This document shows, in pieces, positions 6,173 through 7,747 of a stretch of DNA of 16,594 nucleotides. Under the pieces are notes generated by a model. It saw only the letters and a program-made list of their open reading frames with translations, did no database searches and was not told the origin of the DNA. The stretch lies in contig JASEGQ010000011.1 of NCBI GenBank assembly GCA_030017875.1, positions 1-16,594 on the forward strand, read 5' to 3'. The stretch comes from Candidatus Aenigmatarchaeota archaeon. Its GTDB lineage: Archaea > Aenigmatarchaeota > Aenigmatarchaeia > CG10238-14 > SCSR01. How positions within the stretch are numbered: the first letter of the stretch is position 1; each line of letters starts with the position of its first letter. A program made the position numbers and the translations under genes.

Positions 6173-7747
6173 TTATTTTTCTAACCCTGTTTTTATTTCA
6201 ACCCTTCTCTTTATCATATCCTCAAGCCTACTTAAAATAGTTTTTTGATCTTTTCTGGTTAGTTTAGCTAGTGATTCGGAAACTACTGGAATATACCTCT
6301 CAAATATTTGTTTTCTTAAGAACTTTTCTCTTGCTCTTCTTTTCTGGCTGATATATTTTGCAAGTTTTCTTCCTGCGTCTTGAAGGGCAAGCTTGATCTC
6401 TCTAACTATTTCAGGATAGTTTGCGATCGCTTGCTTTCCTTCAGTAGTAAAAGGAACCCACACAGAAGCAAAATGAACAAGAATCACTAAAGGCCCTATG
6501 GGCAAAGCTCCTGCAGGTTGCTGTAGGCCATATCTTCTCCAATCCACCTCTGTAATAGCTTCAGTTATCGCACAATCGCTCTGATGGTATAACAAAGGAA
6601 CCTTGTTTGCAAATCTAAATATCTTAACAGTTTCATTTAGCGGAAGGTTTCCTCCATAAGCTAAGCCAACTGAGATTTGAAAAGGATTTCCTCTATAAAC
6701 TGTTGGAGGCCTGGAAATCGCAACAAAATGTTCTGCTTCTATCTCTTTTTTCAAGCCTTCTGTGATTAAACTCTCGGTAAGAGGGGAAAGACAATCAGTT
6801 GGTGGAGCAATTAGTTTAACCATTTGCATTGCTTTGTGCAGTCTGTCAGATTCCTCTGTGTTTAGATCTTGAGGCTTTCTACTATGCTCAAGCTTTGCTA
6901 GCTTGCATACCTGCTCTGCAGAGCTTCTCCCCACACGACAGAATTCTGTTGTTAAGAAACTAATGAGATTTTTTGCTTTTGTGGCTGAAAGCATTCTTCT
7001 TAAAATTCCAAGCTCAATCCCATGTGGATGAGGCTTGATTTCTTTTGGCTGTTTTGGTAGTTCATTGGTTACTCTTTTGAACTCGGCCTTACCGCTCGGT
7101 CCATCAAAAAAAATATTAGCATGAGGATTTGCTATTGCAGTCTGCTTGATGTATTCGAGAATTGACTGGCCCTTTTCTACGTACCTTCCTTCAACTTCCA
7201 TCTCAACTTTTACGCCGTGCCATTTCTCAGGATTTTTCTCCTTTTTATGGGAAATTACATTAGGCTCATTCTTCGTCACATCTATCATCAACTCGAAAAT
7301 ATGCTTGTCTTTTCCAGTACTTGTTGTTACACTTACAGGTTTTCCTGTTGTTAGCTGGGAGTACAAAACTGCGCCGTGAATCCCAACCCCCATTATGCCG
7401 CGGGTCTGTCTCAATTTGTGGAACTTGCTTCCGAAAAGAAGCTTCCCAAAAGCAAAAGGGACTTTTGATTCGATTATTCCTGGCCCATTGTCTTCTATCA
7501 CAACTTTAAATCTGTTTACACCAACCTGCTTTAGTGAGATGAATATTTCTGGCAAAATCCCTGCATCCTGTGTTGCATCTAAGCTATTATCTAGCCCTTC
7601 CTTGACAACTGTTACTAGAGACTTGGTCGGATTTTCGTACCCAAGAAAGTGCTTATTTTTATTTCGTCTTGCCTATTGCAAGATTTCGAAAAATTCAGCT
7701 ATACTTATCTCTTTCATGTCTTTTGCCAATTCTTCTGCTGTAATCAT
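6173..7747 (-). CDS. top6B: DNA topoisomerase VI subunit B, two exons (7747..7685 joined to 7660..6173), 516 aa after removal of a 24-nt BHB intron
   Basis: The ORF track starts at TTG 7555, downstream of the GHKL N-box EGLDNSLDA (7600..7574), so the real gene must begin further upstream. An ATG at 7747 preceded by GGAGGTGA opens the same frame as [21 protein letters not shown]. That frame then hits TAG at 7675..7673. Deleting 7684..7661 keeps the frame and gives [34 protein letters not shown]. Confidence 0.85.
7661..7684 (-). other. 24-nt bulge-helix-bulge intron within the top6B coding sequence (contains the in-frame TAG)
   Basis: RNA reads UUU UUCG AA|A UCUUGC AAUAG GCAAGA CGAA AU|A AAA. 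The outer helix is UUU/AAA. The central helix UUCG (7690..7687) pairs with CGAA (7666..7663) at 4 of 4. Two 3-nt bulges lie on opposite strands. The inner helix has 6 bp and the loop AAUAG holds the UAG. This geometry matches the tRNA introns in this window. Confidence 0.75.

Follow-up and report, generated by a model that had tools for sequence, protein, structure and literature searches.

Only two mRNA substrates of the archaeal splicing endonuclease EndA have been described, the cbf5 transcript of some Crenarchaeota and the 5' untranslated region (UTR) of HVO_1309 in Haloferax (PMC7714728; PMC10485636; PMC2738675). The intron in the cbf5 pre-mRNA of Crenarchaeota is of the bulge-helix-bulge (BHB) type and is 16-44 nucleotides (nt) long (Watanabe, 2002; Yokobori, 2009, PMC2738675). 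Its distribution is a patchy one of gain and loss (PMC2738675), and its motif has been described as relaxed and has been linked to the (alpha-beta)2 form of EndA (PMC10485636). A 2023 review considered that more EndA-spliced mRNAs probably await discovery (PMC10485636). This report concerns a stretch of 16,594 nt from a Candidatus Aenigmatarchaeota archaeon (assembly GCA_030017875.1, contig JASEGQ010000011.1), referred to here as the window, in which 24 nt on the minus strand (7684..7661) interrupt top6B, the gene for the B subunit of DNA topoisomerase VI (Topo VI). The probability that these 24 nt are a BHB intron in the top6B pre-mRNA of this DPANN archaeon is put at roughly 0.9. An earlier, sequence-only reading of the window had proposed the intron and had known of no precedent for it in top6B; likewise, in the literature searched, BHB introns were nowhere connected with topoisomerase VI, and for DPANN archaea no report of them in protein-coding genes was found.

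The candidate resembles the cbf5 case as a short BHB intron that lies within a coding sequence, is too small to have a product of its own, and would have to be removed for the conserved, functional protein to be made. The two are also alike in their patchy gain and loss among relatives and in being mis-annotated by gene callers, and some cbf5 introns, like this one, are multiples of 3 in length. They differ in host gene and lineage, cbf5 encoding a pseudouridine synthase in Desulfurococcales and Sulfolobales whereas top6B is interrupted here in DPANN Aenigmatarchaeota, and in geometry, the cbf5 motif being relaxed whereas the top6B site combines canonical 3-nt bulges and a 4-bp helix with an alpha4-like EndA. 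In addition, splicing of cbf5 has been shown experimentally, whereas that of top6B is predicted from sequence. The HVO_1309 intron of Haloferax volcanii (Schwarz, 2020, PMC7714728) provides a second comparison, as a non-crenarchaeal mRNA substrate of EndA whose removal is required for efficient expression. Unlike the top6B element, it is situated in a 5' UTR, interrupts no reading frame and contains no in-frame stop.

The interrupted top6B gene occupies positions 7756/7747..6173 of the minus strand. Direct reading bore out the earlier observation that its frame is broken by a TAG at 7675..7673, that the GHKL N-box EGLDNSLDA (7600..7574) is located downstream of this stop, and that no ATG, GTG or TTG lies in frame between the two. 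The earliest such codon is TTG 7555, past the N-box, and the gene-caller product is accordingly a 460-amino acid (aa) fragment that begins there. Exon 1 (7685..7756, minus strand) would comprise 24 codons from GTG 7756 or 21 from ATG 7747 and ends in SIAEFFE, while exon 2 (6173..7660, minus strand) contains the N-box and continues to the stop codon, as supported by alignment with the Protein Data Bank (PDB) structure 2q2e and by the NCBIfam top6b model. The frame assigned in the sequence-only reading stood, with a different start codon from the ATG 7747 chosen there: GTG 7756 is the more likely start, because a Shine-Dalgarno sequence, GGAGG (7768..7764), lies 7 nt before it and because the resulting N-terminus, (M)VEMITAEEL, fits homologs that open with MVEE.IAEK.

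The base pairs and coordinates previously given for the BHB fold of the 24 nt (7661..7684, minus strand; ATCTTGCAATAGGCAAGACGAAAT (AUCUUGCAAUAGGCAAGACGAAAU)) proved exact when they were verified base by base. A central helix is formed by UUCG (7690..7687) with CGAA (7666..7663), an inner helix of 6 bp by UCUUGC (7683..7678) with GCAAGA (7672..7667), and an outer helix by UUU (7693..7691) with AAA (7659..7657). The loop closed by the inner helix, AAUAG (7677..7673), contains the in-frame UAG (7675..7673). The 5' bulge, AAA (7686..7684), and the 3' bulge, AUA (7662..7660), are 3 nt each and lie on opposite strands, 4 bp apart. The site therefore has the two opposed 3-nt bulges and the 4-bp helix that define a BHB element, with a cut expected after the second base of each bulge; a 1-nt sequence ambiguity at the cut position (A/A) leaves the product unaffected. 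Across both exon-intron junctions (7652..7696, minus strand), the full BHB fold has a minimum free energy (MFE) of -9.8 kcal/mol (z = -4.49), and 0 of 200 shuffled sequences folded as well. In the RNAfold MFE structure, the inner hairpin and the central helix both appear, as does the 5' bulge of 3 nt, with z values of -3.6 for a 51-nt segment and -4.5 for one of 45 nt.

How readily such a motif arises by chance was gauged by scanning both strands of the window under a strict definition, which admitted Watson-Crick pairs only, an outer helix of at least 3 bp, a central helix of 4 bp, an inner helix of at least 6 bp, a loop of 3-8 nt and bulges of exactly 3 nt. The top6B site was the sole match, compared with a chance expectation of 0.0067 matches per window in 300 first-order Markov simulations, and its position coincides with the deletion that protein alignment demands. 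A loose BHB definition returned 120 matches in the window, so that loose resemblance is uninformative and only the strict motif is informative. Once G-U pairs were allowed, the only other compact BHB-like match was a 22-nt element within an M54 peptidase gene (3701..3722, minus strand; GAAGAATTC). It was judged to be a chance palindrome and rejected as an intron: the open reading frame (ORF) is uninterrupted and matches Pfam Peptidase_M54, and excision would shift the frame.

Deletion of the 24 nt rejoins the top6B frame and yields a predicted protein of 516 aa. This product matches M. mazei Top6B (2q2e) with E = 5e-149 and S. shibatae Top6B (2zbk), both without a gap at the junction (structure-side segment AEFFEKNRQILGFDS), and it scores 692 bits against the NCBIfam top6b equivalog model. 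Among 120 homologous clusters, mostly labelled Aenigmatarchaeota, the spacing from AEFF to the N-box is 28 residues wherever both motifs were found, the segment AEFFEKN[KR]H[FL]LGYEN is nearly invariant, and none of the full-length homologs has an 8-residue insertion at the junction site. Excision at the predicted cut sites thus gives a product colinear with the PDB Top6B structures and with full-length homologs, as expected of a mature RNA and in agreement with the in-frame excision and homolog-like spacing that had been proposed from the sequence.

Further carriers of the intron were traced from four N-terminally truncated clusters in the homolog list, the contigs of which were then read. 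One locus (L001), from a Logan assembly of SRR23186779, is identical in sequence to the window. A second type, the 24-nt ATCCTAGAATAATTAGGACGAAAT, occupies the identical site in L002 (Logan SRR30965920), L003 (ENA ERZ27251159) and L095 (JGI Ga0114920), and a third, the 24-nt ATCTTGTTATAAGCAAGACGAAAT, does so in L004 (Logan SRR11722086) and L121 (JGI Ga0373630). In both of these types the in-frame TAG of the window is replaced by TAA, and every type of top6B intron was recovered from two or more separate assemblies. P0261, another cluster member, is listed from an NCBI-deposited contig with an equally truncated product.

An alignment of the introns from five loci, representing 3 distinct sequences, indicated that the RNA structure has been maintained through sequence change. 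All 13 BHB pairs form in all 3 distinct sequences, and 3 of the 6 inner-helix pairs are doubly substituted (U-A to C-G, G-C to A-U, and C-G to G-U/U-G). Every cell of the alignment is paired (100%), compared with 38-62% after the 3' partners were slid by 1-3 columns, and RNAalifold independently returned the same core. The introns of the window and of L002 differ at seven positions, six of which fall within the three covarying pairs, the seventh being the change from TAG to TAA. The sequence-only reading had held that a sense codon within the 8 codons of close relatives, together with a lack of BHB-compatible covariation, would refute the intron; the opposite was found, with the stop kept as TAA and the pairing preserved by covariation.

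The coding sequence on either side of the insert has also been constrained. Between the intron-bearing lineages, third codon positions are 44-49% identical and synonymous divergence (dS) is saturated, while nonsynonymous divergence (dN) stands at about 0.2 for exon 2 and at 0.16-0.36 for exon 1, where dS exceeds 1. By these estimates both exons are under purifying selection. It follows that exon 1 is still translated and selected as coding sequence, and this makes sense only when the two exons are joined. The introns themselves share 17-21 of 24 nt despite the saturation of synonymous sites. Every intron-bearing gene has the same exon bases at the helix-forming positions, TTT TTC GAA before the junction and AAR after it, whereas intronless relatives mix TTT with TTC and GAA with GAG, and TTCGAA occurs in 1 of 10 of them. 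Judging from these comparisons, the three intron-bearing lineages are old and deeply diverged.

These comparative data bear directly on other ways in which the interrupted frame might be explained. If the stop codon were read through or recoded, for example with TAG specifying pyrrolysine, a Top6B with 8 extra residues (ILQxARRN) would be made and no splicing would be needed. Such a product is allowed by an in-frame insert whose length is divisible by 3, and by the partial likeness between lineages of the codons beside the stop (IL before it, RRN or GRN after it). A TAG-specific system cannot, however, explain a family in which relatives use TAA at the same codon, and the ORFs of the window (n = 18) end with 7 TAG, 7 TAA and 4 TGA codons, so that both TAG and TAA are ordinary terminators. 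Furthermore, the substitutions track RNA pairing and not codon structure, and the insert would split a motif of invariant spacing in the homologs measured. Recoding, which had been considered unlikely from the use of TAG as a terminator elsewhere in the window, is therefore regarded as very improbable, on firmer grounds than before because of the TAA in the relatives. That top6B has decayed into a pseudogene, or has been divided or cut short so that only the part after the stop, or nothing, is expressed, would account for the finding that gene callers shorten intron-bearing top6B genes to truncated ORFs, all database entries being 460-485 aa long and lacking the N-terminus, and in L002 a TTG is available at the L of LGYEN. 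Yet in the window there is no start codon between the stop and the N-box, and a product initiated at TTG 7555 would be devoid of this ATP-binding element. In three lineages with saturated synonymous sites, exon 1 has kept an open frame and is under purifying selection, insert length and pairing are preserved, and top6A, the gene for the partner subunit situated directly downstream (5055..6128, minus strand; Pfam TP6A_N, Topo_VI_alpha and Toprim), is intact. The chance that top6B has decayed or been divided in this way is accordingly considered slim.

A stop codon and a stable hairpin that follow a potential take-off region give the locus a superficial likeness to gene 60 of phage T4, in which ribosomes bypass a stretch of the message, here 24 nt. 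Bypassing of this kind is extremely improbable, as no in-frame GAA or GAG landing codon is found at the 3' end of the gap, where the sole nearby GAA (7665..7663) is out of frame, and as hopping would need neither the conserved geometry of two bulges nor constrained exon bases; moreover, an insert in a second gene of the window, uppS (see below), is 16 nt long and has the same cut register. An assembly or sequencing artefact in the 24 nt or the TAG might be suspected of a sequence taken from a single metagenomic window. It has a negligible probability given the identical sequence in a separate Logan assembly, the occurrence of the L002 type in Logan, ENA and JGI assemblies, and that of the L004 type in Logan and JGI assemblies. 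An intein at the intron site was rejected as well, since the insert has only 8 codons and contains a stop, and the inteins in the top6B genes of relatives sit at the N-box. Insertions of the latter, intein-like kind were observed in some Aenigmatarchaeota top6B genes inside the N-box, between VCHN and SLDA, in L009 and L011 (each at about 1300..1520) and in P0049, where the insertion matches a Pfam intein domain; in other lineages, then, the same gene has an interruption that acts on the protein.

Several observations weigh against a BHB intron at this site. The outer helix, composed of three A-U (or G-U) pairs only, is weak, and both RNAfold and RNAalifold choose a fifth central pair in place of the outer pairs and the canonical 3' bulge. 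The previous description of the element as a textbook hBHBh' motif was thus upheld for the bulges, the central helix and the inner helix and not for the outer helix, and the top6B site could function in the relaxed HBh' form rather than in the strict hBHBh' one. The covariation comes from only 3 distinct sequences, and 13 of 500 shuffles reached the observed score. The intron is rare, being found in about 4 of the ~135 related clusters listed, and its spread is patchy. The protein collection contained neither a spliced cDNA nor a full-length protein of the spliced type identical to any intron-bearing gene, and an RNA ligase (RtcB) was not seen in the 16.6-kb window. Finally, the EndA encoded in the window resembles the alpha4 type, the range of which may not extend to weak motifs.

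In the mechanism proposed for the putative intron, the exon sequence UUU-UUCG would pair with CGAA of the intron and AAA of exon 2, and the interior of the intron would fold into its 6-bp hairpin, leaving the two 3-nt bulges exposed. EndA would cut after the second base of each bulge, between 7685 and 7684 and between 7661 and 7660, and an RtcB-type ligase would join the exons and probably circularise the 24-mer. Only the spliced mRNA would then encode a Top6B with the conserved junction segment and the ATP-binding N-box. The unspliced mRNA would end at the UAG of the loop after 27-28 codons (24 exon-1 codons from GTG 7756 plus three from the intron), and the production of Topo VI would therefore depend on EndA. 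As read from the sequence, the intron must almost certainly be removed from the top6B mRNA by the tRNA-splicing enzyme, and from the same source we infer cleavage, ligation and any regulatory role. The arrangement of a 3-nt bulge, a 4-bp helix and a 3-nt bulge, the cut register and the predicted enzymes are those of archaeal pre-tRNA BHB introns. The host RNA of the top6B intron is an mRNA, however, and its outer helix is weak and built from FFE and KN codons, with no anticodon stem. A broader parallel is provided by HAC1/XBP1 of eukaryotes, in which an endonuclease and a ligase (IRE1 with RtcB or Trl1) remove a short, structured intron from an mRNA independently of the spliceosome and change the protein that is made, but IRE1 is an unrelated nuclease that acts on twin stem-loops instead of a BHB, and stress controls the process.

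The predicted intron endonuclease gene, endA (2045..2620, minus strand), matches Pfam tRNA_int_endo (PF01974) and tRNA_int_endo_N (PF02778) as well as TIGR00324. The best structural relative of its product is the alpha4 EndA of M. jannaschii (PDB 1a79), which it matches over the full length with E = 3e-29. The window protein has a six-residue, Lys-rich insert, LKRGPK (residues about 126-131), just before an aligned KEH/HEH segment, which we take to be the region of the catalytic His in M. jannaschii EndA. The position of this insert resembles described sites of EndA specificity loops (PMC5829648). It might broaden the substrate range of the enzyme, as the relaxed motif in uppS would need, and its role as a specificity loop is offered as a lead, not a result.

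Rfam and ARAGORN identified two tRNA genes in the window, both with long inserts. A tRNA-Trp(CCA) gene (14580..14690, plus strand; Rfam 41 bits, ARAGORN intron mode) contains about 37 extra nt. Brute-force deconvolution showed that it can be restored by the removal of two nested BHB introns, one of 22 nt inside one of 37/38 nt, with the same cut register as top6B; its acceptor stem has two A-C mismatches in the Rfam alignment. The second tRNA gene (11029..11145, plus strand; Rfam 52.5 bits) contains about 44 extra nt, for which the intron solutions are many and ambiguous. Of the earlier statement that five tRNA introns in the window share the top6B register, the shared register was recovered for the nested pair in tRNA-Trp, and the count of five was not, the second tRNA gene having ambiguous solutions. 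In the same window, a Pelota/aRF1-like ORF of 225 aa (1234..1911, plus strand) was observed to match eRF1 domains 1 and 3 without the central domain 2, which is explained either by reduction in DPANN or by one more problem of annotation.

A second interrupted gene lies about 7 kb from top6B. The ORF of uppS, which encodes a cis-prenyltransferase (14398..13772), lacks an N-terminus, and an upstream ATG (14480) opens MKVPNHLGIIIDG in another frame. Removal of a candidate 16-nt intron of relaxed BHB shape (14425..14440, minus strand; AGCCUUUAGCCCGUAG), which would leave exons at 14480..14441 and 14424..13772, mends this frameshift and restores the catalytic DGNRRWA motif, and the spliced product matches its Pfam profile over positions 1-219 with 232 bits, compared with 17-219 and 204 bits before removal. 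The fold consists of a 4-bp central helix (ACGG with CCGU), a 5' bulge AAA to be cut after its second base, and a small inner hairpin; an outer helix of 9 bp closes the internal loop that contains the 3' cut, between AG and A. The uppS intron shares its cut register with the top6B intron. A relative found in JGI (L116; 1455..1475) and Logan (L117) data has a 21-nt insert at the same uppS codon with an in-frame TAA, in which the central helix and bulges are as in the window and the inner helix is different, and the same 90%-identity cluster includes an intronless relative (L119) with different codons at the site. A full-length UppS (P0264) that clusters with an intron-bearing one (P0238) was considered as a possible spliced cDNA and was rejected, as it derives from a distinct, intronless genomic allele with different codons. 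The uppS case, an independent one, strongly supports the view that this organism splices mRNAs at BHB motifs. Both introns were also recovered by an ORF-merging intron finder, among about 100 false positives, and that approach was abandoned. Both mRNA introns were observed to lie within the first 14-24 codons, and the unspliced messages stop within a few codons of the intron.

The distribution of the top6B intron is scattered. A neighbour-joining tree of Top6B places each of the three intron-bearing lineages in a clade of its own, and the nearest neighbours of each are intronless at 82-89% identity. Repeated loss and lateral spread are both compatible with this pattern. A protein-seeded scan of GTDB genomes returned 80 loci, 0 of them with the insert, and gives no intron frequency, because one seed peptide, EFFEKNKH, spans the splice junction and biases the scan. 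Of 29 matches in a DNA-pattern scan of metagenomes, only L095 was top6B, the rest being chance matches in AT-rich DNA, and a protein search seeded from the L004 gene found no further truncated clusters or carriers.

The start of top6B differs among relatives. Where the relative P0036 starts the gene with GTG, L005 (1886..1888, ACG ACT GAC...) and L004 (1718..1720) have ACG. Before AEFF, L005 lacks any canonical start codon, its top6B is otherwise intact, and its gene call is 486 aa long; the ACG could be a non-canonical start or mark another unrecognised feature. This truncated gene call (P0120/L005) had raised the suspicion of an intron, which was rejected on the grounds that the gene is intact and that the expected start codon is the ACG.

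Taken by itself, the mechanism is one already known, of a very rare kind described before in about two archaeal genes. The novelty lies in the gene and the lineage, in the occurrence of a canonical two-bulge geometry together with an EndA of alpha4-like type, in a loop whose stop codon is conserved, and in the second example nearby. Within 16.6 kb, 2 of about 18 genes (top6B and uppS) have a mini-intron, both within the first 25 codons. The top6B and uppS introns each occur in scattered lineages whose closest relatives are intronless, and of the 4 homologous intron variants whose length is divisible by 3, 3 have retained an in-frame stop in the loop. It is tentatively suggested, at somewhat less than even odds, that BHB mini-introns in protein genes are a recurrent and partly mobile feature of this Aenigmatarchaeota lineage and not a one-off. 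If so, many DPANN genes that appear truncated would be mis-annotated, EndA and RtcB would control whether essential genes are expressed, and the lineage would provide a natural system for the study of intron gain and loss in prokaryotic mRNAs.

For top6B itself, the predicted intron would extend BHB mRNA introns to DPANN archaea, to an essential DNA topoisomerase, and to a canonical two-bulge motif in the presence of an alpha4-like EndA. This extension has comparative support from covariation, constrained exon codons and purifying selection, along with the second example in uppS. The top6B site would thereby offer a simple, testable substrate for EndA specificity and for the gain and loss of introns in archaeal mRNAs.

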